From positions 16,653,101-16,717,100 of the forward strand of contig NC_134025.1 in NCBI RefSeq assembly GCF_964204645.1: a stretch of DNA of 64,000 nucleotides, read 5' to 3'. Source of the DNA: Tubulanus polymorphus (lineage: Eukaryota > Animalia > Nemertea). The notes beneath the pieces are model-generated. The model was given only the letters and a program-made list of their open reading frames with translations, was not told the DNA's origin and made no database searches. Made by a program: the position numbers and the translations under genes. Of the stretch, positions 17,565 through 55,971 are shown in pieces (the first letter of the stretch is position 1; every line of letters begins with the position of its first letter).

Positions 17565-17576
17565 CTTTCCCTATAC

Positions 17577-26642: not shown

Positions 26643-27353
26643 ATTAAGAACATTTCTAACATTTTTCAGTTACTACGAAAATCTAGCTGTGGATCACAAG
26701 TCTTGTGATATCTTAAATGAACTCTATAAAAACATGTTCGATCAAACAGGAGCTTGGGCTAGTGGTCAGAACCGCCCAACGGTTGATAAGGCTGTTGACA
26801 TCAAATTGATGATGAAGGAGATCGTTCAGGCAGATGTGTTTAATTTCCGTTCCGAGCGAAAGGTGACAGGGTTTGAACAATTCAAACATCCTATTGACAG
26901 GATAAACCCATCAACTCTTAAGACATGGTTCTGTTCTAAAAAGATAAGAGCAAAAAATGAAATGATTGACGTTGCATAATGTAGAGGCTTTTTTCTGTAT
27001 TTCTTTAAAACAAATCAAAGCTACAAAATTATAAAATGCGATAGTGAACTAATTATATATCAATTATAACCATAGTTAAAAGGACTTGAATTTGCTAGTT
27101 CTGTGAGGAAATACTTCAGTTGAGGATATGTTTCCAACAGCATCCATTCCATTGTTGTTGGTTCTTGTGAATAAGTAAATAATCATAAGATGATGGAGAA
27201 AAGAATTTGGCTTGTGTTAGGGGTACATGAATTTCTAAAACTCATCTCTGCTCAAGTTTCAAGAAAACCTTCACTCATAGATAGGCCCCCTGTGTCATCT
27301 ACCCCTAACATTAATCGGAGATTCTACCATATCCAGAAAGGAAACAATGAAAC

Positions 27354-29054: not shown

Positions 29055-29328
29055 TTCAATGATTTTGAAGATTGATTAGTAAAAAGATTCGGAGATTCCC
29101 CCAAATTATGCGAAAATACTTCCTTGTTCGCTAAAACGTTCGCTGATTGGTCCATTTAACGGGAATTCCAACAGAAGCCTAATGTCGTTTGTTACAAGCG
29201 CTGTGATTGGTACGACCTGATTCTGGTCGGCTAGTAACGACTCTAACGACTCGTGAGGTCAAGGGGTTCGGGGAACAGCTTTAGCGTAGTGGGTTCGAAT
29301 CCCTTGACGGGTGAAGATGGGCGTCCTC

Positions 29329-30085
29329 GAATAGGGCCAAGAATTGTGTCTGAGCGTCAAACGCGGTACTGGTGTCACCGACGATGACGTTTCGAGTTTG
29401 TGCTTGGGCTCCTAGGATGCAGTAAACGTACACCCGAATGGAGTCGTTCAGGCGTTCCACCCCGGTTTTGGTCAGACCGTGACCTTCGGGTGCCACGAAG
29501 TTAACCCACCCTTTTTCGTTCAGGTACTGTTTCGTGTACAGCGTGCCCAGATCGCCTGCTTCTCCGATCCAATACCTAAAGTCAGTGTTTTGGGGGACAT
29601 TGAATTCGCCGCAGATACGTTCAAACGCTAGTTCGTTCACGGGATTATCGAGCATGTTAAAAACCGTTGTTGGCTGGTACGGGACATTTCATCTCCGATA
29701 GGATCTTCCTCGTTTGAAAATAAACGTGAAATCGGAACAAACTGGTTACCAACGGAGAGGAGTTGTTCATGTGGTTCTTCCAGGAGACCCCGCAACCGCT
29801 TGTGGCGCACTAAATGGCAAAGTTGAGTTGGTTCTGCCAGAACTTCATGTTTGACGTGCGCCTCCAAACTCGAAACTCGCCGAGATTGTAAAAGCGGATC
29901 GGGTAAATCCTGAATATGTCCGGTACAGTTGTCTGAAAGTGATCGTCAACCCTACTCGACAATTGTATCCTCAACGACGTCAAAGCTTTGTGAATGTCAC
30001 CTCTGTAGTCGAGCTTGTCTTTGAATGGTACCACCGGTACGGAGTAACGCGACGATGGATCGTACACAAATTCTGGTGGAAACAT
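29329..30085 (-). pseudogene. N-terminal half of the conserved WQNQLNFA-family Polinton protein
   Basis: MFPPEFVY...KFWQNQLNFAI...GLTKTGVERLNDSIRVYVYCILGAQAQTR...FEDA, homologous to A's 45968-47089; frameshifted. Confidence 0.88.
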
Positions 30086-30113
30086 TTCCTGCGGTATATA
30101 TAGTAGAGACAAA

Positions 30114-30482
30114 ATGCATCCTGTGAGTTACTTGAGAGTATGGTATGCTACCGGGCAGCCTATTCAAGACAACGATCTCAGCAGAAAACTGAAAGGGAAT
30201 GTGGTCGCAGGCATTGAACGATACAGTTTGCAGTGCATGGCTCTGTCCGTCTTCGCCTGGGAGGAAATAAATCGGGAAGCGATTTGGAAGGAGATGTTCA
30301 CCGACAACCGCGTAAACTGGGGTCGAATAGTCACGTTAATCGCATTCGCTAGCTATCTGGCTAAGCATTTCTTCCGAGTCACCGATTACGTCGAAGAGAT
30401 CGCGTTTAGAACGAGGGAGTTCTTTAACGACAATCTCGCATACTGGGTTATCGAGCAAGGTAGCTGGTCAGAATTACCATGA
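30114..30482 (+). CDS. Bcl-2 family protein (vBcl-2-like), 122 aa
   Basis: BH1 EMFTDNRVNWGRIVTLIAFA and BH2 LAYWVIEQGSWSEL; no C-terminal membrane anchor. Confidence 0.88.
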   Translation: MHPVSYLRVWYATGQPIQDNDLSRKLKGNVVAGIERYSLQCMALSVFAWEEINREAIWKEMFTDNRVNWGRIVTLIAFASYLAKHFFRVTDYVEEIAFRTREFFNDNLAYWVIEQGSWSELP

Positions 30483-31723
30483 GACGGAAAAGCGAGTTTT
30501 TTCTGGCTTACAGTATAGCTACTATATCTGCATACGGTAAACACTTGAACTCTTCGAGACAAATTCGAACACCGCTAGGTGTCAAGGCGGATCGAGACCA
30601 CGAGGTTATTACCCACAACCCTTCGTCCGTGTCACCGGGGGAAACCCTTTACGTAAGGATACCAAAACTGCAGGTGAACACGCTGCTGGTACCCGGAAGC
30701 TTGAAACTCACGTTCGACCTCAGCAAAGAGGGTCCGGCTAATAACTTCTTCGTGAACAACATTTCGAGGAACCTTATGGCCAGAATCGTTGACAAACTGG
30801 GTGGTGAAATCTTATCGGATTTGAACTACAGCTTCGTCTTCCGGACCTACAAAGATCTGTGGCTTACGGAGAAAAGGCGAAGTAACATGATTCTGGAAGG
30901 AATCGGCAACGAGAACTTGAGGAAACTCAGATCGGATGCAGAAAGCGCCTTGAAAACCAACACCAAGGAAACGATGATCAAGTCGGTGTTTAAGAACAGG
31001 TACGCCATACCCATCGATTTCGAACTGTACACGGACCACGGTCCTTTCTATCCGTTCGCAATCAACGAGGACTGTGTTAGGGAGATCACTTTCAACGAAA
31101 TCAAGTTCACTGTAAACGGGAGTGCGGAGGCATGGGGATACTCCGTGAAAAATATAGCCCTCGAATACGACACCGTGCATTCGGCGGAGCTCGCCAGACA
31201 GATCGAAGCCGACCTGTCCGCCGGGGTAAGCTTCTTGTACGACTACGTCACGTTCTTCAGGAGTCAATCCACGGGAACCTCGACAATTCTGAACGTAAAC
31301 GTTAACGTTAACAACGGGCAGTACGATTCCGAAGCCACCTCGTTTCAGAACCCAAACATCAAGAACGTCGATGTCACGATCGAAGGAATATCTCACAAAG
31401 TGTACAAGCAAGGACTGAAACCTTACCAACAATGGGAAGAGTGCAGAAGATTTCTGATGCCAGAATCGGCCAAAGAAACCGACGAGTCGCACATAGACGA
31501 GTTCTCGTTCTTCGTCGACGACAAATACGCATTGTGGATCGATCTCAGAAGCACAGACGACAACTCGCTTCACGGATCTGGTCTAAGGTTGGTCAACACA
31601 AAGGACGGCGTTCAGTTAGCCATCACCCGTACCAGCACAACGGAGTACACGATGTTCATTTACGTCGTAGCCGACACCCAAGTAAACATCCAGAACAATC
31701 AATTAAAGGCGATTCTGTTCTAA
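30479..31723 (+). CDS. Element B probable double jelly-roll major capsid protein
   Basis: 414 aa, beta-rich, directly upstream of the ATPase. ITHNPSS...ETLYVRIP, YKDLWLT, LEYDTV and WIDLRSTDDNSLHGSG are shared with A's 48811-49922. The capsid call rests on size, context and family resemblance. Confidence 0.75.
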   Translation: MRRKSEFFLAYSIATISAYGKHLNSSRQIRTPLGVKADRDHEVITHNPSSVSPGETLYVRIPKLQVNTLLVPGSLKLTFDLSKEGPANNFFVNNISRNLMARIVDKLGGEILSDLNYSFVFRTYKDLWLTEKRRSNMILEGIGNENLRKLRSDAESALKTNTKETMIKSVFKNRYAIPIDFELYTDHGPFYPFAINEDCVREITFNEIKFTVNGSAEAWGYSVKNIALEYDTVHSAELARQIEADLSAGVSFLYDYVTFFRSQSTGTSTILNVNVNVNNGQYDSEATSFQNPNIKNVDVTIEGISHKVYKQGLKPYQQWEECRRFLMPESAKETDESHIDEFSFFVDDKYALWIDLRSTDDNSLHGSGLRLVNTKDGVQLAITRTSTTEYTMFIYVVADTQVNIQNNQLKAILF

Positions 31724-31735
31724 TGTATAGCGGAG

Positions 31736-32347
31736 ATGGATAGGCTTTGGTTACAGCCCCCGTTCAACATGATTGTGTCGGGGCAAACGAACTGCGGAAA
31801 AACGCACTACGTCCTCGACCTCCTACAATCTGTCTATCGCGGCAAATTCCACAATATAGTGATTTTCTGCCCGACTTTCCTCGAGAACACCACCTACGAT
31901 AGATCGTTTGTGATGAAGGACCCCAATATCTTCGTCATGAACCCGGATTCGGTGTTAAACGACCTAGACGGTTTGCTTTCCACGTGCACCAAAGTATACG
32001 GCGATCCTCATTGTCAAACTCTGTTTCTTATAGACGACTGCGCCAACTTGAGGGATACTAAAACCAAGTCGTCCGAATTGACGAAACTCGCGTTCTCGGG
32101 CCGTCATCTGAATATCTCAGTGTGGGTGCTCACTCAAAAATAGAACGCCGTTGTGAAATTCCGAGAAAACCTGAGAATGTTAGTCCTGTACCACCAAAAA
32201 GACGAGGATGGTTTAAAGGATGCTCTGCTTGAAAACAACATCGTCCCGAAAACCAAAAGGGAACGTGTGATCGCAGATCTCTCTGCTAGGAATCGGGCCC
32301 GTCTCGTCATGCGTCTCGAGTATCCATTCGCCTACGGGGTATTCTAA
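31736..32347 (+). pseudogene. Element B A32/FtsK-like packaging ATPase
   Basis: Walker A GQTNCGKT, Walker B LFLIDD, FSGRH..ISVWVLTQ; premature TAG at 32141. Confidence 0.92.
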
Positions 32348-32374
32348 ATTTTGGACGACTAACATATAGCGAAC

Positions 32375-32808
32375 ATGGACGAAGTCTACGACGAATTACT
32401 GAGTGACATTGGGTTGGATGTAGAATCACCCGAAGACGACGAGTCGGAAGGGCGCAGGCAGCTACTTGTCGGGCTTTCTCAGAGCGGGTTGCTCGCAAAA
32501 ATAGAGTACGAAAACCGTTACTCCGCCGCGGTTTCCGACAGTCTGATCAACAGCATGCTGTACGGTTATTCCTCTGCAAGTGGTTCAGACCTAACGTAAA
32601 CGCAGAACAGCTAAACAAGGAGTTGACTGAAAACTTTGTTATCACCGCCGAGACGAAAAACCAGCTCGGCCATCTGGGTAGGATTCTGAAGACTCCCATA
32701 CTCGCAATCGCGAACGTGGCGGTAATCACCGGGAAGAATATGGCAGATTCTGAGGAAAGTGACTTGTCCACTTGTCCGCAAGTAACTAGTCCACTTGCCG
32801 ATAAGTAA
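32375..32808 (+). pseudogene. Hypothetical protein, positional homolog of A's 51902-52440
   Basis: ATG preceded by the element's TATAG motif; fragments resemble A's post-ATPase gene. Confidence 0.5.
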
Positions 32809-32829
32809 CTTGTCCACTTTCCCGCAAGT
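32757..32829. repeat. Three 23-bp tandem units
   Basis: AAGT(G/A)ACT(T/A)GTCCACTT followed by 6 variable nt, three times. Confidence 0.8.
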
Positions 32830-32855
32830 CGTATTTTCCTCTCTTGCATATAGGG

Positions 32856-33086
32856 ATGAAACTTGAACAAGTGGAACAAGTGACGACTAACCCGCATAAA
32901 CAAAAGTCCCCTGGTCGAGTCGCATGGGGCAAAAAGCTTGCCGAAATTAGTAGGCAGCAGCGAGCCTCGAAGAAAACGGCTGCCCCGATTGTCGGTTCCG
33001 ACAACGAAAACAGAGCCCAGTCAAAACACCTGCAAGTGTGGATCGCGATAGGCGGGTTGTTAGTGGGCCTCGGAGCTCTATACTAG
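32856..33086 (+). CDS. Small basic membrane protein
   Basis: KSPGRVAWGKKLAE followed by the hydrophobic segment VWIAIGGLLVGLGALY. Confidence 0.6.
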   Translation: MKLEQVEQVTTNPHKQKSPGRVAWGKKLAEISRQQRASKKTAAPIVGSDNENRAQSKHLQVWIAIGGLLVGLGALY

Positions 33087-33204
33087 CAGAGAATGGCACT
33101 AAACCAAACCCAGAAACCCGAAGAAAGCACGGAACCAACACCCGAACCTTTGAATTGTCGCCTTGTGGAGATGACCTAAATTTTCTGGTGATAGATATTG
33201 CACG

Positions 33205-34227
33205 ATGGCAACGAATCCAGACTATGGAACAATCGCAAACCTGGATGACATGGAGCGGGCCCTGATGCGCCTGCAACTACGAAAACAAGACGACACCTGG
33301 TTCTTTCAGACGGAACTGAACGGTGATCCAGTTCGGGTGAAACTTACCGGTAGGAGCGGTCAAGTACTCGCCCATAGTACCATCTCGAAAGCGCAAAGGG
33401 GGCTCTGAGTTTTTCCATGCTCTGGGCCCTGACAGACCGGTGAGAATGGAACGAGACCCGTTGGAACCATCTATCGTGGATAGGTGGATAACGAGTTGAG
33501 TTTGCAGCAGGAAATAGAGGACATCGTCAATGACGACAGGGCTCCGCTGAGACCAGAAGACAGACGTGAACTCCGTGGGGTAGCTACTACTTTGGTTTCT
33601 ACGTCCAGCAAAATTAAGTCAGCAGCTGTAAACGTGGAATGGGCCCAACGAGAACTTGAAAAGGCTCAGAAAGAGCGCGATGACGCGGTGTCCGAACAAG
33701 ACATCCGATACTGGGACGACGAAGTAGAAAGGTTCGAAGCTCAGGAAGCAATATACAGGCGGACCTACGAGGCTCTACGGCAAGGGGAGACTTCTCAGAT
33801 CGAGACGTTGAAGAGGCTTCTGAAGAACGAAGATAATCGGCCCCTCGGCGTAAAGATCCGGGAGTTGTTCAAACAGGAAGGGATTACGTTGGTGAGCGTT
33901 GTCATGGCCGTCGTTATGACTATCACGAGCATCGGGCTCGCAATCGCGAACGGGCTCAAAAGCGTAGTAACACCCAGTCCGCCGGTTGGACCGGGAAAAG
34001 AACCCAAGTCCAGGATTCAAGAAGCTCTGAAACAGTTCGCGGCGTTTCTTATATATCTCGCAGGGAAAGGAGCTGCCGCGTTGCCGGGAATGATCGGAAC
34101 GGTGGTTAGCTTCCTGTTGAGGAAAGCCGGAGAAGTCGTCGGATTCGTAGCCGAGCACTTGGTGTTGTTGTTTATCGCTGCAGTCGGTCTGTCTTTCCAA
34201 GTCCTGAGCAGGAAATTTTCGCGTTAG
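33205..34227 (+). pseudogene. Coiled-coil protein with C-terminal membrane segments
   Basis: LFKQEGITLVSV...KGAAALPGMIGTVVSFLL..AG..V.F.AEH is homologous to A's KSSAALPGVIASIVGFILKSAGNILNFAAEH (48467-48733). Confidence 0.75.
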
Positions 34228-34238
34228 ATATAGGAAGG

Positions 34239-34952
34239 ATGTTAGTCATCCACTGTTACGGTAAGGATCCGACCGTGCGTCTAAAAACGCATCTCGACAC
34301 GGCTGGCTTCAAAACTGTGGCCTTAAGACGTGCTGTCATTCCTCTGGCTTACTTCAACGTTTCCGACAAACTGAACAACCACAGGTTTCGCTACATGACC
34401 GGAGAAAGGGTGGACGAGCACCAACAAAAAGTGTTCAACTTGATTATCAGGAATGGACTTAACACGGTTGAGAGTTTGAAAGACGAAATTCAGCGAGTCA
34501 TAACCCGAAACGGTCACAAACCGGGCTTCATTAACATAGCCTACGTGGAGGCGAGGGGGCGCATCGAACTCAACGTCAAAAAACCGTACCGAGTGCTCTT
34601 CAGCGGCTCCAACACCGATCTGTTGGGAGTCCCGGAAGGATATTACCCAAACGTCGAAGGTAAAGAGGTTAGCGTAAGGGGTACGAAAGAATGTAGGTTT
34701 ACCAGGCATACGGAATACCGCGTAACGTGCAATCTCGTTGACGAATCGAGAAACTTCCTAAACGGGGTGCCCTCGGACCTGATCGCCATTTTACATCCGA
34801 AAGCAGGTCAATACGGCGACTCATTCGAGTACGTTTACGGGTACCGATACCAATTAAGGAAGGCGGCTTCGCCGACGTAGTGGTCAAGGTTTTCAATCAG
34901 GACATGGATGAGATTCGATTCCAAGAACCGCTCCAAATTTTGCTCGCATTAG
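34239..34952 (+). pseudogene. Element B probable minor capsid (penton) protein
   Basis: YFNVS...G..T...L...YRVTCNLVD pattern shared with A's 43742-44500; frameshift near the 3' end. Confidence 0.65.
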
Positions 34953-34959
34953 AATAGAG

Positions 34960-35418
34960 ATGAACTTGTACAGGGGATAAGGGAAAACGCAGTCAACCAC
35001 AAAACCTGTGATAACCGTTTGGGCCGAGGAAAAAGGACCCCTCGGTGAGGGCTCTTACGAGTTCTCGTACGGTGATGGGTCGCGATCCCAGTACGCGGGC
35101 TACACGATGATGTGTCCGGGGAGAGTGCTAAAAATGGGCCTCTCCGGTGTTGACTTGACAACTAATACCACAGTAGTGTTGACCGTCAACAGGGTGGAAA
35201 AAGGAGAAATCACGAAAGAGGCTCGGCTTTTACAAGGCCCGATCAAACCCCAAGGTAAAGGAGTCTTCCAAGCCGCGGTCAAAACGTTCTCTCCACCAGT
35301 CGAATTGGCCGAGGGCGACGTCATCAATTTCAAGTCGTCGAGATCGCCCGCTACTCGAGCAATAGCTACGATAGCTTCACTCCTCATCGAGCTCGACATT
35401 TTCCCGCATAGTATATAG
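34960..35418 (+). CDS. Hypothetical beta-rich protein (possibly virion-associated), 5' end frameshifted
   Basis: ORF 35008-35418; the ATG at 34960 follows the element's upstream motif. Confidence 0.45.
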
Positions 35419-35419
35419 C

Positions 35420-36030
35420 ATGGATAGCGACACTAAACTTTACCCAATGGTTCTAACTGAGCCTAGTGCTCCAACCGAAGATGCGTCGAACTTCCGACTG
35501 CAAAGATATGCGAAGTCCAGAAAATTTTAGAGGCCGAGGGACAATCCCGCGCTGCGCTCTACAAGAAGTATAAAAGGGCGGTAAACACCATAGATGGATT
35601 TGACGCGGCTTTCTTGACGGCTAGCATAGCAGTCGCGGCTACGGGCGCCGCTGGCGTGCTTACAAACATAATCACGATCCCCGTTGCGACCGTCCTAGGC
35701 GTCTTAGGCGTGTCTGGGAAGATAGTCGGTCGGAAGCTTCTGATCAAGGCTAAAAAGCACGACGAAATTCGAGTGTTAGCCTCTTCCAAACTAAGCACCG
35801 TGTCAGATCTTGTATCGAGGGCAATAAGTGATGGAGTTGTTTCGGATGACGAGTTCAAGCTGATTCTAGCCGAACAGAGGAACTATCAGACTTTGAAGCA
35901 GGATATCAAGTCACAGGCTCGTAAAAAACACGGGTCGATCACGATCGACGAGGCTACAAAAAACGACCTCATCAGGCAGGGCAGGGAGCAGGCCAGGGCT
36001 TCCATCATCAAAAAGCTGGATGGAGGTTAA
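35420..36030 (+). pseudogene. Membrane protein with an N-terminal LYP...PSAP motif
   Basis: MDSDTKLYPMVLTEPSAPTE..NFRLQ, a frameshift, then RAALYKKYKRAVN, two hydrophobic helices and AISDGVVSDDEFKLIL. Confidence 0.7.
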
Positions 36031-36053
36031 CGTTAGAGTTTAACAGAGACACG

Positions 36054-36430
36054 TCACCCCCGGATTACTACTCCCGATTTAGCTAGTTGGTTCGCCATCT
36101 CATTCCCGTGTACCCCCTGGTGACCCCTGACGTATTTGAAAGATACGGAGACTCGGTTATTCAGACCATCCAGTTGTGTCCAGAGATCGCGGTTTTTGAC
36201 GTTTTTCCAGCACCTGGCTTTCCACGTCTTGATCCAATCAGTGATACCGTTTATAACGTATTTCGAATCGGTGAAAATTTTCAAGGAGTTAATACCAAGC
36301 TGGATGGCCTGATTGAGAGCCACGACGACCGCGGTTAATTCACCTGTGTTGTTGGTAGGTGGATAGACGACGCCACAGGTGTTTAAGGGACTGCACCGTT
36401 TCTCAGGCACGAGCCGTCTGTATACACTTC
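36054..36430 (-). pseudogene. RNase HI domain fused to the RT (frameshifted)
   Basis: EVYTDGSCLRNG at the end of the RT frame, then TNNTGELTA, IFTDSKY, WK.VKNRDLW and YVRGHQGVHGNEMANQLAK. Confidence 0.93.
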
Positions 36431-37750
36431 GGGTATATGCTCCGGATAGATGTCGAATACGTCGAACGCCTTAGAGCTACAGGGGAATTTTTCTGGGTCG
36501 GGGGTGGCGTGCGCGAATATTCCTAAGTAGTGGCCTTTTATGAACGCCTTCGAGTTTTTATGGTCGAGGGATTCGAAAGCGAGAACGAGATAATGGCTGT
36601 TTTCGAATTTCGAGATGGCCACTTCAACGATTTTTTCGTCGGGAGAAGTGATAAGGAAGTAGACCTTCAATGCATGAAGCCAGTGGTATACGGTGGACGG
36701 TACTTGAAAAGTGAGCAATCGACGGTGACCCCATTTATGTAGCGTGTTTACAAAGACACTGTCGATTAACTGCAAGCAATTATCAGACAGGTCGTTGATC
36801 ATGAGGTCATGGTAATCAGCTCTCAGCATATAGTCTATAGCGATATGAACCTTTGTCCCGCTTTGTATATCGGCGTTATCTATGTTTGCGAGTCGTTGCC
36901 TGAATTTTGTGAGGAGAATTTCACCCACCCCTTCCTGTCCATTGGGACTGAAAATTCGTTCGATTGAACCGAATGCATATTTAAGGTAAAATAAAGTCAC
37001 AGATGAGTCATTTTCAGTTTTTTCGGCTTCGATGATTTTAGTCTCTAATAATTCAGAATGTTCCAGTGTCCCGTGAAAACCCGACACGAATCCTTTTTGT
37101 ACGGCAGTGTCGATGAATCCGTTCCTAATGACGTGGCGTTCTATGCGTTTCGCCATTATCCGATGAAGGAGCCTCGAGATCACGCTTGTAACCGCAATCG
37201 GACGATAGTTAGCAGGATCCCGGCGGTCCCCTTTCTTGAATAGAAGCGTCACAATACTGGTGCACCACGCCGAGATTTTCGAAGGTGGCCTTCCCGTATC
37301 TAGTATGTCGTTGTAAAATCGCGCGAGTCGATGGGTGTGCTGACGGATATGTCCGTATTTGATCCTGTCTAGACCTTGAGCGGACTTTGGGTTGCTGCTC
37401 TTCAAGGCTTTTTCGATTTCAGCTGCGGTTATCGGTGACATATCGAACGGGAACACAACGTTCTGCTTACTAGAATACAGGTCCGTGAAGTATTCCTTCA
37501 CCCGTCGTTTAGTCGGAAATGCATCCTCCTGCGTTTGATTGCTCGGGGTAATAATCTGCTTGGCTGTTGTAAAGAACCGATTTGCCTTGTTGAGTTTGCT
37601 GATTTTTCTCACTAGGCCGAAGAATTCTTTCGAGCCGGCTTCATTCTTGAACAGCGTCTTCCGTAATTCACATTTCCGTTGTTTCAGGGTTTTCGGCAAC
37701 CCGGCTTTTATGTCACTCACCAGGTTTTGATAGATCAGATCTGTGTCCAT
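36383..37750 (-). pseudogene. Non-LTR (R2/RLE-clade-like) reverse transcriptase with the catalytic core deleted
   Basis: KSAQGLDRIKY, WCTSIVTLLFKKGD..DPANYRPIAV, QKGF..G..GTLEH and YLKYAFGSI, then a jump to a thumb-like region. QG, YADD and YLG motifs are absent. No APE or RLE endonuclease. Confidence 0.92.
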
Positions 37751-37822
37751 TTCTGACCACGCAGAATCTATATCCACCTTGGTGAGTGAACCAGGACTTT
37801 CACGAGACGCGCTTCACCTGGT

Positions 37823-38642
37823 GTGTTGGCCGGGCCTGGCCATGTCCAAGGGACATGGCTCTGGTTGCCTGCCGATGTCTCGGTTGTTTGCCGGCTTCTG
37901 CGTCAGCATAGAACTTTCTAGGCTATTTTGCAATCAGTGTCAAATCAGGTCGCAGCGCACCGCTAATAGCGTCAGCTTAGAGGTGAATTCCAGGTCAGAG
38001 CGTTTCACATACTTGTATATACTGTAAATATCTATGTAAATAATACTTTGTTGTAGGTGCATTATAGCGGTTGGTTTATAGGGGCCGGAGGGGGTTTGCC
38101 GGCGTGTTTTCCATGGTTCACAGGGGTTGTCTTCTTAGGGTATTTAGGTGGAGAAAAAGCTTTGAGGGGGTACACGGTATACCGGGGTAAGGATGGGCTG
38201 CGCCAGAACCGCGGTCCACAGGGGTTGTTTTCTTAGGGTATTTAGGTGGAGAAAAAGCTTTGAGAGGGTACACGGTATACCGGGGTAAGGATGGGCTGCG
38301 CCAGAACCGCGGTCCACAGGGGTTGTTTTCTTAGGGTATTTAGGTGGAGAAAAAGCTTTGAGAGGGTACACGGTATACCGGGGTAAGGATGGGCTGCGCC
38401 AGAACCGCGTTCCACAGGGGTTGTCTTCTTAGGGTATTTAGGTGGAGATAAAGCTTTGAGAGGGTACACGGTATACCGGGGTAAGGATAGGCTGCGCAAG
38501 AACCGCGGTCCACAGGGGTTGTCTTCTTAGGGTATTTAGGTGGAGATAAAGCTTTGAGAGGGTACACGGTATACCGGGGTAAGGATAGGCTGCGCCAGAA
38601 CCGGGGTCGGGCTGCGCCAGAACCGCTATTTTGTATACTACT
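37823..38642. repeat. Right TIR of element B, with five 98-bp tandem units (~38115-38602)
   Basis: Reverse complement of 11465-12194 with one extra unit. Confidence 0.95.
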
Positions 38643-38648
38643 GAATTA

Positions 38649-39757
38649 GTAAATAATTCTGAAAGATTAAGACATTTACAATCAAGTCCTAGACATTTAG
38701 GAAATTTAGAAGATTTGAAGATTATTTAGCTGCAGTTAAATTAAAAAGAACGTCAATGACATTTAATAAACCTATATTCATTGGTTCAACTGTTTTAGAA
38801 ATATCAAAATTATTAATGTATGATTTTTATTATAATGTTTTACAACCACTTTTTGGGGAAAAAAAATAGAAATCTTATATTTTGATTCTGTAACAGCTGA
38901 CACCCCAATATTATTAAAATGTAATGATAAAATATTGATAAGAAGAATTTCAGAAATAATTCCAAAACAAAATGAACGTTATATTTCATATGGTGAAAAA
39001 GAATTAATACAAATAAATGGATTAATGGATGTTTGGACAAGAAATGGATGGGAAAAATTAAAGAATATAATTAGACATAAAACAAATGAAAAGATTTATA
39101 GAGTTAGAACTAAATTAGGGTTTGTAGATGTTACAGAAGATCATAGTTTTATTAAACGAAATGGTGATGAAATAAAACAAACTGATATAAAAATTGGAGA
39201 TGAATTGTTACATAAAAGATTTTTCCAAAGAATGAATCATATGTCATTTGATGAAATAATTGATAATATTTATAATATAGAACCTGAAACATTAGAAGAA
39301 AAAGAATATTTTATCAAAGGATTTTTTATGGGAGATGGTTCAGCAGGTGTGTATAATTATGTTAATCGCACTCAATATTGCTGGAATATATGCAATCAAG
39401 ATTTGAAATTATTAGAAAGAATAAAGAAATACTGTGAAGTTTAAAGATGAATTAGGGGGTGATGAAATGATTGAATTTGTTGGGATAAGAAGTAAAATGC
39501 ATAGTTATAGAACAAAAGATCACGAAGCTAAAAAGTTAAAAGGAATAACAAAGCATGTGGTTGATAAACATATAGAATTTCAAGATTATATAAAGTGTTT
39601 ATATAACTCAATTGTAATGAAACATAAAATGAATTGTTTAAGATCAGAAGATAACGAGATGTACATTAATGAAGTTGAAAAAACTAGTTTGAATCCATTC
39701 GATGATAAAAGATATATTTTGGGTGATGGAATAAAAACATTGCCTGATGGTTATTAA
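38649..39757 (+). pseudogene. Element A pPolB, second part (with intein and a deletion)
   Basis: FNKPIFIGSTVLEISKLLMYDFYY...ILYFD, then the intein, then KFKDELGG..EFVGIRSKMHSY...KKLKGI...SLNPFDDKRYI. Confidence 0.93.
38887..39436 (+). other. Intein (N-terminal splicing region plus first LAGLIDADG motif), C-half deleted
   Basis: In frame after LYFD: block A SVTADTPI, VWTRNGW..L..IIRHKT..KIYRV.T..G.VDVTEDHS (block B TxxH), IKIGDELLH, and the endonuclease motif YFIKGFFMGDGS. Confidence 0.9.
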
Positions 39758-39809
39758 AACATAAAATCAAGATCATCATACTCGAAATCACTACTGGTTT
39801 CTTCATTTT

Positions 39810-42412
39810 TAGGACGTCGTGGTAACACGACGTCCTGTTGGAATCGTGTAAGTCAGTTTGTTAAGACGTAGTTAATTTCTCGGAAGTGACTGAAAGCTTG
39901 GAGCTGTAACTTGCACATTATTTTAGTCATGAATTTTAAAGGATTGAGATTTGTTTCCCGTGGAATTCTATGCGGTAACTGCGGAGAAATTTCTAAAAAA
40001 CATGCGATTTTGGCCCGTTTTGGTTGTACGTCGTGGTCGTAAGAGTTAACGCTATGCTGTTGTTATGGGATACCGCAATAAAAACTAATTATACAAATGA
40101 TGTTTGATGGAGATATGAATATTTATTAATTAAAGAATATATATGTTTTCAATCGGCATAAATTGGTGGCGTTTGTTTTTCATTTTATTGAAAAAAATAA
40201 ATATTTGCGGGACTGTTCTCGCTGGACAGGAAGTGGAGTAGTCGTAGCAGTACACGTACACGTGCGCCGTTTTCCAAGAATCAAGTTTCCGTTGTAAGTA
40301 TTGTTTAATTTATTTTGTGAATTGTGTATCTCACATGTCTCAAAACATCACACGCTTGCACTGCTTTATCGGGAAAACTTATGAGATCGTAAATTAAGAT
40401 GAGAAGCAGCACTTAATTCGCCGGGAATTAAGCCCGGAGGATCCATATTACTTTTAGTAGTTATAATATATAGGTCAAGTTAAGCGGTTGCGAAGCGTTC
40501 CTTAATTTCTTTGATATGCAAGTCGGTTTCGTCTCTTGTGAATAACAATTCGATCTACTGGGTTGAAATGAGACCTACGTAGTATGTGCTCGATCCTCCA
40601 CAGCTTTACAATACAGTCATAGCCTAAGAGTGACAGCACAGCGCACACAACACAGCATAGCAGTGAACTAGGCCTACACTATACAGCAGTATACACTGCC
40701 TATCTCGCTTGTTGATAAGACATCCCCCCTCAGCAGGGATTCGAACCTAATGGCCTCGGTACACTCAGCCACGGCAATTCAATTTAATTTATTCATAAAA
40801 TATGTACATACAAAGATTGTCAATGAACATAAGCAAGGAGAAAGAAAAGCAGTCACAAACAAATGAAATGCTTACAAAAAATACAATTGAGACATAACAA
40901 TGAAAATGGAGCACCAAGTTGAGACAGTTGATGCAACTGAGTTCTTAAAGGAGCCACACTTAACAACTCTATTTACAATATTATTTACAAGCAATTTGTT
41001 TAAAGCCGAATTTTGTCAAAATGCCTAGGTTTATCAGGCACGAACCCCCACAAATTTAGTATCAGTTTGAAAAAAAATTTAGAAAAAAGTTTTCATATTT
41101 CAAAGAAGAACAGGTTATAGAGCCAGGTTAAAAAAAATTACAATTATGTCCACACATACGTGACGCCATCTATCATGAAAACTATGTACTAAGTGTCAAC
41201 TCCAGTCAACGGGCTTTTCAAGCAATTATTTCGGACACTTTTATAACTTAGATTGCAGCTAATATTGAAAATGTGTGGACCAGAGGTACTAACGGTTAAG
41301 GTATTCATTTCATTAGTTAACCACTTCAGCAAGTTCTTTGAAGAGAAGTTCCTCAAATCATCCCCACTTAATCTTAAAAAATTAAGACAAAACTCTAGTT
41401 TTGCATTTTCATATCTACCAAATACAAGATGAAATATTTGTTGATTGATTTTGTTTTGTTTTTCAGACTCTGAGAGCACCAAGGGTAACAAAAAACTACG
41501 AGATTCTTGTCATTGAAAAGATAGATTCAACCGATGTAAACTTTTTATGCGACCTCGGTGAAAACACAGATTGCTTCAGTATTAAGATACCTAAACCTAT
41601 GCATTGTAATTATTACCAATTGCAAAAAGTATCATTCGAACTAAAACAGTTTTTGAAACATGGTTTAACACACATTCGGTACAATTTGATTAGGTGTCTA
41701 ATTAACATTATGTCTTATACATAACATGTACATCCACTTCCTGTGTTGTGAATAATCAGCAAACAAGATCAGTTGTTAAATCAGCAAATAAAACTATTTT
41801 TACATGTTTCTATATATTCAATCTTGGTGTTCTTCATGCATTTCAGCAGGATATCTGGCCGACACCTCCATCCATCAGCTTTCAAAATTGAGATTTTGAC
41901 ACTATATGGGATAACATTTTAGTCAAGATTTCAATTTCATGGATAACATTACCAAGGACTTGTATCAACATTTCTGTACAGTTCACATCTATTTTGAAAC
42001 AAATGCAGTAAAAATTACCGCTAGATTCCCTATCATACCTAGGGGTCTGCAGGCAAATGATCCCTGGTTTTGTTAATTTGATTTAAAAGTGTTTTGATAG
42101 AGATTTGTCCCTCCAATGAATTGATAATTTGCTGCGGCACATTTGAAATTGAAAAATGCTGCAGGTTTAAAAGAATTGACATGGGTTGCTGTCGCCACCT
42201 ACTGCATTCTATGATTGCTGTAGGTGAGATTTGCCCAGATTTTAGGCCTGGTACTGTTACAAATGACGCCAACTAGATCCACCTAATAGTTACCGTAAGT
42301 GTTTATGAAACTGCTTCTAGTCAGCATTGTTTGCTCCACCCATATAATATTTATGTTGCCCATGAAAGTAAGTGCATACATATACAAACGACGTCCTGTT
42401 AGAAAGTGTGTT
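39810..42412. mobile_element. Composite insertion in element A (piggyBac-like ends, SINE and LINE debris)
   Basis: Sharp change in composition; repeated ACGACGTCCTGTT ends, a GAGTTAA end at ~40049, a tRNA B-box-like GGGATTCGAACC at ~40736 and degraded LINE-like coding remnants. Confidence 0.5.
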
Positions 42413-42457
42413 TCTAGTTATTTAAATATTTAGGTTCTTCCATTTCATTTTTCTCAT

Positions 42458-43674
42458 TTAAAGTTCTACATTGTACCACATTTGATCTCTTTGTTTCTTT
42501 TTGTTTGTTAATTCATCAAATGGAATTATAATATCGATGTTTAAAAAATTTACAATCTTATTTAAAATGAATTCATAATTAATTGAATCTGTTATTCTAT
42601 TATCCACATAATATCTTAATATTTTTGTGAATGTTTTTTTTATATTTTCCATATCTTCTGTTAATTTAGGTTTCTTATAATAATCGTTAAATAATAGATA
42701 TAAATACATTTTCTTTTTTTGTGTGTTACATGTTGATGGAATAATTGTTTTTATTATATCTTTTTTAGTTATTTCACCATTTTTATTTTCAATCATTTTC
42801 ATTTTGTCAAGCTATTGCTTATATTCTGGTGTATGAAAATATTTTGAAAATTTCTTCTAGATATTTTAATTTTGGTTCTATAAGAATATCTCTAGTTTTT
42901 TCATCACCCCATAAATTCCTTTGCCATCCACATTCATTACAAAATATCACAGAACCTTCTTGTCTTAAGTACTTATAAATACATTGTGGGCATTTTTTTC
43001 TATCATTTCTTGGTAATAGATCTTCATTCAGCTCTTGGTATTTTCTTACGTTTTCTTTATGTTTTATTGTTCTATTATGTAGATTTGAATTACTAGTTGT
43101 AATAATCAATTTACAATATTAACAATAATATGTTTTTCTTACTAATTCATTATATTGTTTTTTCTAAATTTTCAACTGTTTCTTCATTATCTGGTAACGT
43201 TTTCTCATATTTCATTTTTACTAATATATTATTTTTTCTTTCATTGAATTCAGTTTCAAATTTATTAGAAATTTTATCTATATGTGCTTTACGAAATTGA
43301 TGATTCTCCCAATCTTCTATATTTTCAGGGCTATATTTAATTCGACAAGAATTAATCTTTTACAGAAATAATCTCACAGAAATAATCTTTTATATTATCC
43401 TTATCAAAGAATAAGAAAGGTCTTTTCCAAATATTTTCAGATTCAACTTCAACAGAATTACTATTACTTTCGTTACTATCAACATTAACCGTTGTGTCAT
43501 TAACTTAACACTTCTCTGAATGTTTTTTAACATCATTTCTTGAGAATAATTTATTACAATTTGGGCAGTTTATTTTAGGGGGTTTATAATTTTTATCATG
43601 TTTTTCATATGTCGAGCCATATTACTTTTTCTTAGAAGTTCACCACAAATTTCACATGGTATCTTCTCATCCAT
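42458..43674 (-). pseudogene. Zinc-finger / VLTF3-like late transcription factor region of element A
   Basis: N-terminal C2H2-like fingers, a CPQC...FCNECG ribbon, and C-terminal SINYEFILNKIVNFL..IIP..L.NKKKQRDQMW resembling the VLTF3 family end. Frameshifted; may be two genes. Confidence 0.65.
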
Positions 43675-43741
43675 TTATTTAGGAAAAATTTTATTAAAAT
43701 TAATTTTTAGTGATGAGCGGTAATTTTTTATGTTATAAATA

Positions 43742-44501
43742 ATGGTTGAATTAAAAGAATATAGAATATTTGTTGATTCAAGAAGACTTACTCATTATAA
43801 ATCACATAATTTACTAGTACAATTAGATCGAGAAATTAAGAATTGTGTAGATTTAAAATTAGTAAATGTAAGTTTATGCAACACATTTTACAATGTATCG
43901 AATAAAACTGTTGAACATAGAGCCTTTTTAATTTTTAATAAAAATAAAAATGAATGGGCCTATATATATTTAAAACTGGGTTATATAATTTAGATACATT
44001 GGCACAAGAAATTAATAGAAAAGCCTGGCACAAGTCGGGTAATAATTCCGGGTTTAATATTAGATTTTTAAAAAGTGAGAGTTCTAACAAAATAAAGATA
44101 AGGTTGGCTGATATTGAAAAACATAAATTTATGGTAAAAAAACCTATAGCTAAACTGTTAGGAAATCCTCCAGATAAATTTTTTTTACAAATATTGAAGC
44201 TACACCAAACTTAATATCTTTTACACACTTTTATATTTATTGCAATTTAATCGATCCTACAAATACATTTGAAGCAACTAAACATATAACTTGTAATTCT
44301 GGTTTATTAAACATTTTACCATTGAAGAATGTTAAAGAATTTGGAACTCAAATAAATTATAATTTAACAGAATGTGATTTCAAACCATGCATTCCTCAAT
44401 TTAATAATTTTAGATTAGAAATTAGAAATCATAATGGATATTTAATTGATTTTAATAACTTTCCTGTGATATATGAATTAGTTATAAGATGTAGAGAGTA
44501 A
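43742..44501 (+). pseudogene. Element A probable minor capsid (penton) protein
   Basis: YRIFVDSR, NTFYNVS, GLYNLDTL, FYIYCNLID and LIDFNNFP across frameshifts. Confidence 0.7.
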
Positions 44502-44517
44502 TTTTTTCACTATATAA

Positions 44518-45951
44518 ATGAATATAACTGTTGGACCGAGTATATGTTTTGGGTTTGATTTTAAACATGGTAAAGAAATGAGAATTAAACTAAATGATGT
44601 AATTACTGATATTAAACGTAAATCATTCAAAAGAAAATTATAATATAGAAAAAGTAATTGATTTAATTAAAACGCCTTTAGAATATTATGAATTAAATCA
44701 AGATGGAATTATCGATGATATTAAAGATATATTATCTAAAATATATGATAATCATAAAAGTAGTAATGAAATAAATGTTGAAATAATTATAACTAAGATA
44801 AATAAATATTTTGAAGATAGTAATTTTGATAAATTAATGAGTGATAATAAGTGGATAATAACTGGATTATATAATGAAGCATTATTATCAGTTGGAACTG
44901 TTGATTATTCAATGGTATCAAAAAAGGTATTTAAAATGGGAAGGGTTAATGTTGATAGATTTGATATAAATGATATCTTAAAATAAACGTTAGCGGTTAC
45001 TTTATCTAATTTAACTATTGATTATTTAGAAAAACAAAAATATATTCCTCCTGTATAAATGTCTAATTTTTTTACTAAATAAATGGCATCTGCAATTATA
45101 ACTATTATAGGATCGGCAATTGTTAACGCTTTAGCATTTACAGGTGGTGGGTATTTGTTTAAGCATATTGATAAAAATGGTTCATTATCAGAACAAAAAA
45201 GACATAACTTAGCATTAGAGAAATACAATAGAGCAGCAGAAGAACATAGAGAAAAGAGGCAAAACTATATGGATTACATCAATAAATAATTTTATGATCA
45301 GAAGATTTCACATCGAGATTTTCAATCAGTTGATGATGCAATGAGTTTATATAACGCGGTAACCAATAAAGAAAAATTACATCTATACAAACCTAAATTA
45401 TCAGATTATTATACCCCAAGGAAAGAACAACAGAAATATGAAATAATTTGGATTTTAGGTGGAACAGTTATTGTTATATTTGTAGCATATAAATTTACTA
45501 ATTAGTAATTTCTTTTCTAAATAAATGGATGATAAAGTTGATAATATTGATATTATTCCTCATGATATAAATAAAACCAAATTAAAAACATATTTAGAAA
45601 AACAAATATTAGAATTTGAAAATGATTTAAAAATAAAATGATTTTAAAAGTAAAATTATATATTATTTTATTATCAGTGGTTCAGTTACAATTAGTTCCG
45701 TAATAACATTTCTAGCAATATTCAGTCCATTAACACCTTTAGCTATATCAATTGGTGTGCTAGGATTATCATCAAGTGTATTAACTGGTATAAGTTCAAA
45801 ATTAAATATAAAAAGTAATAAAGAAAAAATTAAAACTAATATAAAAGAAATTAATAAATTAAAAAATACACTAGATTATATAATAAGTTTAAATGGTATT
45901 ATAACAGTTGAAGAACAAGTTAAATTATTAAAAGAATTAAAAAATTATTAA
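44518..45951 (+). pseudogene. Cluster of small hypothetical or membrane genes (starts at 44518, 45083, 45525)
   Basis: Each start follows TAAATG. Includes MASAIITIIGSAIVNALAFTGGGYLF...EQKRHNLALEKY and a decayed homolog of B's 35420 gene. Confidence 0.6.
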
Positions 45952-45967
45952 TTTTTTTATTATATAA

Positions 45968-47343
45968 ATGGTAGATAGTTTTCCGAAAGCTTTCCAATAT
46001 AATAAATCAATTAAATATAATATTCCTGCAATAGATTTTAATAAAGATATTTCATATAGAAATGAAGTTTTAAATTCATTAATTAATTTAGATATTTATG
46101 TTACTGAAACTAATAATTTTAATGTTAAGGTGGAAAATATATTCAATATTTACGTAATAAATTTTACAAATTTAAATGAGGCAAAACAATGGTTATTAAA
46201 ATCTAATATGAAATATTGGCAGAACCAATTAAATTTTGCTGTTTTTTGTGCAACAACAGGGTCTGGTATAAGTTGGAATGATCATTTGAATAAACCAAGT
46301 TTACCATTAATATTATCACTTTTTAGATTTCATACATATTTTCAAATAAAATTAATATTAGATGAATTAGAATGTCCTTTACCAGGTTCAAAATACTTTA
46401 ATAAACTAAATAATAATATTAATTTTTCTAAGTTTTATAAAATATGTAATGAATTTAATATTAATTCAAATAATGATTTTAGAGCAAAAACTGGAACAAT
46501 GGGTGGATTAGGAATATTATATACTAAAGAATTTGGAAAAATAATGACAAATTCAGATATAAGAACACTAGATTGGAATGAATTACCAAAATATTATAAT
46601 AATATACAACAATAAAATAATAATGGTAGGATTAATTTCATTTTAGAAAATAGTGAAGGTTTTACTAACTCAGGTATACAAAGAATGAATCAATCTATTA
46701 GAACTTGTTTGATATGTATTTTAGGTGCGCAAGTTGAAACAAGATCACCAATCGTTGGAAATGATAACACTTCATTTGATACACAGAAACAATTCAAAGT
46801 TTTATTTGAAGATTCAATTCATAATGATAAAAATAGATCGATTTCAGAAAATATAGTAAGATATCAAAATTATTTAGATAAATCACATATTAGATTAAAT
46901 TATTGTATAGGCCCTAATCTATTAATTATTTCTAATGATTTAATATTAAAGATGGGAAATATAATTGGTTATAATAATCTAATTAAGACTGCAACAATAA
47001 ATAATTCATTTGGATTGAGTGATATAAATAAAAAGATTATTACTGCTCCAAAATTAATGGAAGGTGAAAATAGAAGGTGTAAAAATTAAAAAACATATTC
47101 AATCAACAGAAACTAAAACTAAGAATATTAAATTAAATGATGATTCTAAAATAAAAGATTACAATACTACAGAAAATGGTGCCGTACGGCACCCACACGG
47201 TGATATAAAAACTGATAATATTCAACATGACATATTTAAAACTGATTATGATAATAAATCCCATGAAAATGCTAAATTAGCTATTACTTGTATAGGAATT
47301 GTAATAGGAGGAATATTATATTTTAAATTTTTTTATTATATAA
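45968..47343 (+). pseudogene. Element A WQNQLNFA-family conserved protein
   Basis: KYWQNQLNFAVFCATTGSGISW, FRFHTYFQ, CILGAQVETR, IGPNL; C-terminal hydrophobic helix. Confidence 0.85.
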
Positions 47344-47357
47344 ATAATTATAATTGG

Positions 47358-48790
47358 ATGTAAAAGGTGGAGAAGATATTGGAATGGATACTTTGATGGA
47401 CCCGGTATAACTGAAGAACAACCACCTGATTTTAATGAAACAAGTTTTAGTAACGATAATGAAACAGCATATAATTCTAATTTAGCAAGACCTGATACAA
47501 ATGAATATGTTAATAAAGCACGTTCAAGATTGGACATTGAAAATGAAAATCCAGATTTAATAAAAAAAGAATTAGAATATGAAGAATTAACTGAAAAATT
47601 TAAACCAATATTTTAAAAAATCTGGTTTCAATATAACTAATAAAGGTGTGAATTATTTAGTAAAAGATTTGAAATATTTAAATGGTGATTATTATTGGCA
47701 TTTGAAAGATGACTATTATTTTAAGATATCTTCTAATAAAAGTCTCGATAAAATAATAACAAAACCAACTTTAATTAAATTAGAACAATCTAGAATTAAG
47801 AAAATCAACAATGATGTTATAACTGATGTTACAGAACAAGAGATAAATCAAAATAGAACAGAATTTAATCGAAGAAATAATGATTTTTTGAAGATAATTA
47901 GTGAAAATTTAGAACCAGAAACAATTCCTAAAGAAGTTATTAATTCCAAAACTAGTAAACTTAAATCAACCGAAGTTCAAACTGAAAAACCTTTACAAAA
48001 TGGGTTACTAGATGCAACAGATCAAGAATTAGAAGATTTAAATATATTTTCTGATGAAGCAATTAGAGAAATTAAAGGTATAAGAAAGGAAGCTGATAAA
48101 ATTTCTGAGATAAAATTAGAAAGAGATCATAAAATCAGGTTTTTAGAAGATAAATTATCTAGTAAAAATAAAGAATTAGAACAATCAAAATCTGATTTAG
48201 ATCATCAAGCAATTGATGAAATGTAATATAGACAAAAGGAATTACGTTTAGAAAAAGAAATTGATGATTTAAAATATAACATAGAATTACAGAAAGAAGA
48301 AATTAAATTATTATTAAAAGAATATGGTAAAAATTTTAAAAGGTTAAAAGATGTTTTTAAAAGATATCTAATAAAACCAAATTCTGAAATATCATTGAAT
48401 GATAGAATAAAATTATGATTTAAGTTAGAAGGTATAACAATTCTTTCAATTCTAACAGCTGTTACTATGTTATTTACAACAATTGGTTTAGCGATATCAA
48501 ATCCATTAAAATCTACACCTACTCCCAATAAACCGGATAAACCTCCAGGTCATAATAATTCTCTACAAGACAAAGTTAAAGATGGTTTAAAAAAATTAGC
48601 AAAATATCTATGGGAACTATCTAAAAAATCTTCTGCAGCTTTACCTGGAGTTATTGCATCAATTGTTGGTTTTATATTGAAATCTGCTGGGAATATTCTT
48701 AACTTTGCTGCTGAACATATTATTTTATTTTAAATTACAGTTGTAAGTGCTATTATTTTTGGGTTAATGAATATGATAAAAAATAAATAA
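47358..48790 (+). pseudogene. Element A coiled-coil / membrane protein
   Basis: Homologous to B's 33205-34227 at the C-terminus; several stops. Confidence 0.7.
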
Positions 48791-48810
48791 TTAATTTTTT
48801 TGTTAAATAA

Positions 48811-49922
48811 ATGAGTGGGAGTTATATCAATCCTTCTAAGAATTCAATAATATCTAATGCTATTAAAGCAGAAGGATCTCATCATATAATTACTCATAAT
48901 CCTTCTAATATCAATCCTGATGAAACTTTATATGTTAGAATCCCGAGATTAAAAAATTAACTGCAAAGGTTGGACCAGAAACAGTTTTCTCATTAGATGA
49001 TTATGATTTATTTATGCATTATAAAGATTTATGGTTAACTAAAGAAAATAGAAATAATATGATATTTCAAGGCATCCAATCAGAAAACCATAATAAATTA
49101 AGATCAGAAGCTAATAATGCAATTATAACTAATGCTAAAGATAATTTGATAAAAAAGATTTATGGAAGCAAACATAAAATTCCATTAGATTTTGAATTGA
49201 TAAATAATAATGCACCTTTATATAAATACGCAATTCAAGAAGATTTTATATACGAAATAACATTTGCTCCTGTTAATGAAATTGTATCATCTAGCGTTGT
49301 TAAAGATATGGGTTATAAATTATCGAATATATGTTTAGAATATGATACAGTAACTGATGAAAATATTTCAAGTATAATTCAAACTCAATACAATCAAGGA
49401 TTTTCATTATTATATGATTATATTGATAAATTTAAAACTGTAACTATTAATGCAAGTGATGAAATAATTAATGAGAATATTAACTTCCCAAGAAGATCTA
49501 TTAAAGGTATATTAATATTTTTCACCATTGCTACATATTCTAATGGCACAATAAATGTTGACAATTATTATAATCCTGAAATAACAAAAGTAGAATTAAC
49601 TATTGAAGGTATAGCAAATAAAATATTTTGTCAAGGAATGAGAATGATCGATCAATGGCCAGAAATTAGAGAACATTTTATGAATGAAAGAAATAAATCA
49701 TCTGAAATTTGTAATATTAATCAAATTGATTATTATACCGGTAATTAATATGCATTATGGTTAGATTTTAGAACAACAGAGGATAATTCATTACATGGTT
49801 CTGGAAAAAAAAATTACAGAACACTAAAGATGTGATACAATTATTTTAAAATGCACATTTATATTATATCTGACGCGCAATTAAATGTTATAAATTCTCA
49901 ATTAGATAGTATTCAATATTAG
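48811..49922 (+). pseudogene. Element A probable major capsid protein
   Basis: ITHNPSNINPDETLYVRIP, YKDLWLT, CLEYDTV, RRSIKGIL, WLDFRTTEDNSLHGSG; has a deletion and stops. Confidence 0.75.
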
Positions 49923-49958
49923 AAATATAAGAAATAAGTTAAAATTAACGATATATAA

Positions 49959-51693: not shown

Positions 51694-51694
51694 A

Positions 51695-51869: not shown

Positions 51870-51901
51870 GCAACAAAACAACTAATTTGTTTGTTATATA
51901 A

Positions 51902-52793: not shown

Positions 52794-52896
52794 TATTTTA
52801 GAAAAAAAAGCAAAAAAATTTATTTTTTTAAAATTAATTCAATATCACCATGTGGGTGCCGTACGGCACCATCTCACTACTTTTGTCTATCTACGC

Positions 52897-55940: not shown

Positions 55941-55971
55941 AGAAATAATACTTTCTAAAGGTAACAATGAT

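Follow-up and report, generated by a model that had tools for sequence, protein, structure and literature searches.

The window (the whole 64,000-nucleotide stretch of DNA that was analysed) contains a BEL/Pao retrotransposon broken by a Polinton, here termed A, the polymerase gene of which is itself divided by the insertion of a second Polinton, B. The mobile elements and their main genes, including those for the protein-primed DNA polymerases (pPolBs), are as follows:

7382..9050 (-): BEL/Pao retrotransposon, integrase side, broken by Polinton A; matches Atlas clusters that are 99-100% Eukaryota, with Arthropoda the commonest phylum
9057..53907 (+): Polinton A, AT-rich, entire but decayed, with AGT...ACT ends, ~155-bp terminal inverted repeats and the 6-bp target duplication CGCGTA (9051-9056 and 53908-53913)
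9451..11464 (+): upstream part of the pPolB of A, from the exonuclease to polymerase motifs A and B, carrying stops and frameshifts; PF03175 E=3e-15, 61-69% identity to P0248
11465..38642 (+): Polinton B, GC-rich, nested in the pPolB of A, with ~700-bp inverted repeats and the target duplication GAATTA; Pfam detects pPolB, rve integrase and A32 ATPase
16156..16173 (+): empty intein site of the pPolB of B, LMYTD/TDS, seen in the sequence (a slash here and below marks the insertion point or splice junction)
39437..39757 (+): C-terminal end of the pPolB of A; 74% identity to P0248
48817..51483 (+): other genes of A, namely a homologue of a 419-codon ORF of B (48817-49913), an integrase remnant (50241-50501) and an A32 ATPase (51114-51483)
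53914..55980 (-): BEL/Pao retrotransposon, protease, reverse transcriptase and A17 side; Peptidase_A17 E=2.6e-27, RVT_1, Asp protease

A has the AG...CT-ended terminal inverted repeats and 6-bp duplication of Polinton/Maverick elements, and encodes a pPolB, a retroviral-type integrase and an A32-type ATPase; the latter two were detected by tblastn with the proteins of B (E=3e-8 and E=2e-22 respectively), the ATPase also matching Pox_A32 at E=0.001. The 419-codon ORF common to A and B, which has no Pfam or PDB sequence match, is a probable candidate for the major capsid gene, and no cysteine protease was found among the ORFs of A scanned. The gene discussed below is part of an integrated virus-like element: the original prediction of an intein in an animal Polinton DNA polymerase stands as regards the Polinton pPolB, but the carrier is not a host gene. 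An assembly chimera with a viral contig is ruled out by the target duplications and by reads over the intein being as deep as those over the adjoining extein in the sample of a second study. The BEL/Pao flank makes an animal host very probable.

Several smaller insertions and fragments lie in the same region. This copy of A has a 2.6-kb insertion (39810-42428), skipped by two joints of 31-32 reads each, and within its pPolB positions 9925-10015 are a 91-bp inverted copy of 11333-11423 with 100% identity. Nested in B is a 2.4-kb Mutator-like element (19264-21646) with ~230-bp inverted ends and the 9-bp target duplication TTAAAGATT, and positions 22173-29019, which hold a decayed DUF6589 ORF (E=0.006) and, on the opposite strand, a RecQ-like helicase (DEAD, Helicase_C and RecQ zinc domains), are probably a further inserted transposon. 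Reverse transcriptase and RNase H fragments (36057-37813, minus strand) adjoin the right inverted repeat of B, and the inverted repeats themselves contain a 98-bp tandem unit, present four times on the left (11505-11894) and five times on the right (38115-38608). Two further A-like pPolB fragments (1-1134 and 62797-63382, both on the minus strand) end short of the intein site.

The interruption of the pPolB of A is made up of the following parts:

38649..38886 (+): pPolB segment directly upstream of the intein, its last residues being YFD (38878-38886), with frameshifts near 38700 and 38860
38887..39435 (+): N-terminal half of the intein, with Ser1 (block A), the Hint N-terminal domain and the first LAGLIDADG repeat; TIGR01445 above cut-off, 64% identity to the intein of P0001
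39130..39144 (+): block B, VTEDH (Thr83, His86), seen in the sequence
39310..39342 (+): block C, first LAGLIDADG motif FIKGFFMGDGS, including the acidic catalytic position, seen in the sequence
39435..39439 (+): deletion junction in the intein and pPolB, placed by comparison with P0001; 134 reads of run X5 depart there

The frame at 38836-39441 reads ILYFD/SVTADTPI, with Ser1 at 38887, where B reads LMYTD/TDS; this difference between the two polymerases, and the block A, block B and LAGLIDADG motifs, had all been claimed and were all found, the motifs at 38887, 39130 and 39310 respectively. The intein part comprises 183 codons free of stops. A chance ORF is ruled out because the score against NCBIfam TIGR01445, the intein N-terminal splicing region, exceeds the curated cut-off (35.7 against 24.5 bits, E=1.3e-8); the Pfam Intein_splicing family matches at E=1.1e-4, yet its score of 22.5 lies below the gathering score of 35.8. 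Among PDB sequences PI-PkoII is a match (E=6e-5). VTEDH is the sole T-x-x-H match resembling block B in a six-frame scan of the window, and G160 and F162 of the first LAGLIDADG motif are invariant in a 64-row alignment. The window copy thus has both the block A Ser/Cys1 and the block B TxxH of class 1 Hint domains. A Hedgehog-type or other animal Hint domain, with Cys1, at a protein C-terminus and without an endonuclease or extein ligation site, is rejected: the element has Ser1, is internal to a polymerase motif, includes a LAGLIDADG domain and is kin to PolB inteins. The original proposal therefore holds for 38887-39435: by its sequence, this segment codes for the N-terminal half of an intein of the LAGLIDADG type.

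The insertion point, YFD/S, lies inside the catalytic motif, DTDS, of the pPolB. That this is a known PolB insertion site, YxD/TDS, is borne out by the junctions and the tree grouping described below; we take it to be the pol-c site of the InBase naming. Alignment with the intact P0001 breaks after residue 1367 and restarts at 1584. Residues 1368-1583 are lost. They comprise ~170 aa of intein, among them the second LAGLIDADG repeat together with blocks F and G, and a polymerase stretch of ~45 aa that contains TDS; the C-terminal Asn followed by Thr, Ser or Cys is accordingly absent from the window copy. The original prediction had placed a deletion at ~39436, and the junction and the loss of the C-terminal half agree with this, the polymerase loss being ~45 rather than ~40 aa. 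There is an additional frameshift in an A-run at ~38860, immediately upstream of the intein. The window copy is a dead remnant, incapable of splicing and of yielding a polymerase.

Intact pPolB inteins that restore TDS, whose existence the prediction implied, do occur in relatives of other families. Altogether 291 longer proteins matched the window intein at E<=1e-3; the best eight were pPolB-type proteins or ORFs, 47-64% identical to it (45-64% for inteins in other pPolBs), and those from rank nine onward carry PF00136. A second search added P0149 and P0150. Six complete pPolB inteins, 40-65% identical between families, were delimited:

P0001: 354 aa, YGD/S...SN/TDS
P0004: 346 aa, YMD/S...HN/TDS
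P0006: 347 aa, YMD/S...HN/TDS
P0008: 350 aa, YLD/S...KN/TDS
P0149: 339 aa, ASD/S...HN/TDS
P0150: 337 aa, SSD/S...HN/TDS

All six have Ser1, TxxH, both LAGLIDADG motifs, the block F Asp with C-terminal Asn/Thr and an exact return to TDS, none is a mini-intein, and they are predicted to splice out of their polymerases. The LAGLIDADG profile PF14528 scored above cut-off in P0001, P0004, P0008, P0149, P0150 and P0005 (the six scanned). A model of P0005, a natural ORF, had a pLDDT of 92.6 and its fold matched TliVMA, PI-PkoII, PI-PfuI and PI-SceI (best E=2e-17, to TliVMA). A terminal HN-TDS had been expected of full-length copies; the return to TDS through Asn was found, but His is not required, since the last two residues of 187 extracted site-c inteins are KN in 117 cases, HN in 63 and SN in seven. 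The closest relative, P0001, ends in Ser-Asn and the mimivirus intein in Lys-Asn.

A profile search of representatives at 50% identity gave 2496 matches at E<=1e-3, the best 150 of which included 123 new proteins, none a full-length pPolB host, and nine short fragments nearest the P0004/P0006 clade. Scanning viral contigs with the window's own peptides gave 17 pattern matches, none confirmed, and a metagenome scan (593 stretches) found at least two weak loci, 30% identical over 92 aa, with the contig of P0001 not among the matches listed.

The position of these inteins among PolB inteins was examined in two trees, the first of 72 rows rooted on five inteins from another site, the second of 59 rows under a mixture model with an archaeal-intein root. 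Both are quick searches with SH-aLRT support and without bootstrap; motifs served to delimit the inteins of P0008, P0149 and P0150, and eight near-identical pPolB inteins were omitted. All nine pPolB inteins formed a single clade in each tree (SH-aLRT 100), inside a branch supported at 98-99 with viral-type PolB inteins. Within this branch they are sister to, not nested in, a 31-row clade containing mimivirus and ChoanoV1. The mimivirus PolB intein is 42% identical to the window intein over the part kept. The best viral locus reaches 45%, compared with 64% for P0001, and among the best 80 viral loci 79 lay in mimivirus-type polymerases and none in a pPolB. The proposed resemblance to the mimivirus-type PolB intein is thereby upheld, and the proposed tree with known PolB inteins places giant-virus-type inteins as the nearest outside kin.

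The bulk of archaeal matches are 23-32% identical, with a few MAG contigs (33-41%) placed among deep viral-type rows, and an archaeal donor is ruled out because archaeal inteins fall outside the branch uniting the viral and pPolB inteins. Many Nitrososphaerota genomes (L091-L113) have a related intein of 330-340 aa; five of these that were translated, and an unplaced Thermoproteota intein, have the junctions YGD/S...HN/TDS. Because all nine pPolB inteins are monophyletic, one old jump is indicated, with the intein of A received through the Polinton lineage, and we infer that an unsampled polymerase of Nucleocytoviricota type passed the intein once, long ago, to the homologous pPolB motif. Recent direct capture by A is ruled out by the same monophyly and by the GC content of the intein (0.25), which is as in the exteins of A (0.22-0.27). 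Of the claim that the intein came from a large DNA virus, then, the giant-virus-type kinship stands, but the jump was a single old one and the nearest relatives are other pPolB inteins.

Occupied and empty alleles, a survey of which had been proposed, were both found. Representatives of the 120 nearest pPolB clusters were occupied in four cases and empty in 100; four stopped short of the site, and for 12 the pattern gave no clear call. The exteins nearest that of the window (P0248-P0250, 65-81% identity) are empty, reading HIEIMYFD/TDS. The extein tree comprised 54 rows: nine occupied, 42 of the 100 empty proteins after thinning at 80%, and three added. Occupancy needs eight changes on it (mean when shuffled, 8.5), at least seven of them forced by starred branches, and holding the occupied exteins as one clade was rejected (p-AU 0.0006). 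In the P0004 cluster of 136 members, the 15 listed (94-98% identity) include seven occupied, five empty and three unclassified; members of 1537 and 1191 aa are 97-98% identical and differ by a single 346-aa gap, a precise in-frame insertion. When seven occupied proteins are compared with seven empty ones, all ten fixed differences fall between residues -7 and +44 relative to the site, though this block could be mere linkage to a large insertion. The four informative N-terminal variants are found in both classes, hence the intein block occurs on more than one extein background.

Against four pPolBs of group 1 the exteins of P0008 gave no significant match (best E=0.007). Its intein is nevertheless 46% identical to that of P0001 and falls inside the clade, which is best read as at least one lateral jump to a very distant pPolB. 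Across families, intein and extein distances are mostly parallel (e.g. 1.43 and 1.48, 0.52 and 0.56), which long vertical inheritance fits as well as homing within families would; for the window and P0001, however, the intein distance (0.62) is smaller than the extein distance (0.93). Occupied P0004 members vary more in the intein (2.1%) than in the N-extein (0.7%), a pattern unlike that expected of a very recent sweep.

Empty sites also differ between clades. In the clade richest in intein alleles DTDS is kept in 11 of 63 empty proteins, compared with 47 of 49 in other clades; the remaining 52 (25 YMDCDS, 15 DTDG, eight DTDA and others), set against two elsewhere, come from related rows, and the counts are not independent. 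The variants belong to P0260-, P0280-, P0299- and P0131-type pPolBs, and in the occupied members examined in this clade the intein is preceded by YMD and, wherever its end is retained, followed by TDS. The recurring changes to DCDS, DTDG and DTDA are possibly escape of the target site, although the rows are related and perhaps represent few host genomes.

Read data bear on the number of copies of the A family. Part of the stretch is contained in four of the ten listed runs, all from one study; run X5 is raw whole-genome shotgun sequence from another sample and another study under the same species label, 12% of the reads of which were used. X5 depth is 210-267 over the intein and 224-267 over the extein just upstream, compared with 11 in the lowest nearby 500-bp bin; taken as single-copy, that bin would imply some 20 copies or more. 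Undeleted intein copies are likely to dominate, and the deletion at 39435-39439 is likely to be private or rare because 134 X5 reads leave the window at 39439. Reads matching just 38792-38863 (depth 530, with 183 and 165 loose ends) indicate a more distant subfamily, one whose match stops before the intein, and in one X1 contig 38861 is joined to 39437 with unknown letters between; these fit intein-free relatives without proving them.

Our explanation, which we regard as probable, is that the window preserves a broken LAGLIDADG intein in a multi-copy Polinton pPolB of what is very likely an animal, and that complete copies would splice and home among related Polintons. Splicing would begin with an N-O acyl shift at Ser1, aided by the Thr and His of block B; attack by the extein Thr+1 and cyclisation of the last Asn would then rejoin YxD to TDS. 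This chemistry is proposed from what is established for class 1 inteins and from the residues that the text seen of PMC549080 gives for the intein of mimivirus. Because its catalytic motif is divided by the intein, the polymerase of any occupied element would require splicing. The endonuclease would cut DNA of the empty YxD/TDS site, and repair from an occupied copy would introduce the intein together with a little flanking sequence; the numerous integrated copies of a single nucleus, or replicating copies, could supply both alleles without meiosis, as cut targets and as repair templates. The lineage would go back to a single old jump out of the same motif in a family B polymerase of Nucleocytoviricota type, followed by co-divergence with Polinton families, cycles of invasion and loss, and at least the one jump to P0008. 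The fuller proposal, in which this intein lineage of one giant-virus origin is still actively splicing and homing in animal Polinton pPolBs, moves across copies and distant pPolBs, and drives the changes from DTDS to DCDS, DTDG and DTDA through an arms race, is put forward tentatively and is the less probable part.

Patchy occupancy might also result from a single entry into pPolB after which splicing was kept and homing lost, with repeated loss and ordinary recombination between copies. The nearly equal intein and extein distances across group-1 pPolBs and the greater variability of the intein than the N-extein in occupied P0004 members agree with this, and the linked differences beside a 1-kb insertion can be explained without a nuclease. 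It is nevertheless unlikely, as all six complete inteins retain both LAGLIDADG motifs at full length (337-354 aa), at least seven changes of state are forced, P0008 requires a lateral jump, and the inteins of the window and P0001 are closer than their exteins. Even less can be said for separate captures by every Polinton family, A included, from co-infecting large DNA viruses: giant-virus-type PolB inteins at the same site are the nearest outside relatives, and the YGD flank of P0001 is of the viral type, but the monophyly of all nine pPolB inteins, the lower identity of the best viral match than of P0001, and the agreement in GC content between the intein and the exteins of A make this the least probable history.

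The intein and its history could be as described and the host a non-animal eukaryote, in which case the claim of an animal genome would fail. No host genes were identified in the window, and virus-type polymerases with inteins are known from nuclear scaffolds in algae and in a labyrinthulid (PMC10710043). Nevertheless, A sits with its target duplication in a BEL/Pao element, a subclass described as metazoan in the part of PMC3118150 seen, and the integrase of that element matches clusters in which Arthropoda is the commonest phylum; such a host is accordingly improbable. The preferred reading remains an intein in a multi-copy Polinton of a very likely animal.

The closest known systems are the PolB inteins of mimivirus (site III, Ogata et al. 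2005, PMC549080) and other Nucleocytoviricota, which share with those described here the YxD/TDS position, Ser1, TxxH, two LAGLIDADG motifs, Asn/Thr, a length of ~350 aa and, for the mimivirus type, the same branch of the tree (98). The Nucleocytoviricota polymerases are RNA-primed (PF00136), unlike the protein-primed pPolB (PF03175) of an integrating Polinton, and the pPolB inteins differ in forming a clade of their own and in being present as numerous chromosomal copies, occupied alleles alongside empty ones. Archaeal PolB inteins (Thermococci, Nitrososphaerota) use the same site, YAD or YGD/S...HN/TD, but differ in identity and in tree position, as given above; the solved LAGLIDADG inteins TliVMA, PI-PkoII, PI-PfuI and PI-SceI have the same two-domain fold.

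Nuclease insertions of the HNH and VSR types have been described in pPolB2 of nematode, oomycete and mollusc Polintons (Jeong et al. 2023, PMC10748475), and one sentence of Krupovic et al. 2024 (PMC11071308) infers possible intein invasions from pPolB nuclease insertions. The former likewise place a nuclease domain within a Polinton pPolB, but the text seen shows no splicing domain, and the main text gave no matches for intein, Hint, homing or LAGLIDADG. The pPolB inteins, by contrast, combine a complete Hint domain and splice-junction residues with a nuclease of the LAGLIDADG type, lie in a catalytic motif and have precise empty alleles. Virus-like DNA polymerases that bear inteins, found on nuclear scaffolds of Klebsormidium, Tetrabaena and Hondaea (PMC10710043), and the inteins of iridoviruses (PMC549080, PMC5784728) similarly indicate, from the parts seen, that viral inteins enter eukaryotic nuclei by endogenisation and occur in animal-infecting viruses; those, however, are giant-virus genes in algae and a protist, or belong to free iridoviruses, whereas the carrier described here is a multi-copy Polinton of what is probably an animal.

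A 2021 review gives inteins as absent from metazoan genomes (PMC8529194), and a survey describes nuclear inteins as mainly fungal, with others in plastids and large DNA viruses (PMC5784728), both as far as their text was seen. No report of a splicing intein in a Polinton polymerase was found in the literature searched, which excluded subscription journals, Repbase and InBase, and the supplements of PMC10710043 and PMC11071308 could list one; the parts seen of PMC12220804, PMC3671162, PMC5718144 and PMC13768754 held nothing further on such inteins. By its sequence, the intein belongs among the ordinary PolB alleles of site III. What is new is a distinct, old and polymorphic lineage resident in Polinton pPolBs of a probable animal genome. 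If true, this would qualify the rule of metazoan absence, animals then having inteins within integrated mobile elements but none in genes of their own, and within the literature searched it would be the first clear splicing intein in a protein-primed polymerase. It would also record gene flow between large DNA viruses and Polintons, and with occupied and empty twins in one family, sequence data from a multicellular eukaryote could be used to test the homing cycle and the escape of the host from it. Intein-bearing pPolB genes are 350 aa longer, so mis-annotation or mis-alignment is possible.

A related intein was also observed outside DNA polymerases, in the type II topoisomerase-like protein P0073 (PF00521, PF00204), where the junctions DAD/S...HN/TDG resemble the polymerase site. 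This suggests that the intein family may be able to hop into unrelated genes with an xxD/TD motif.
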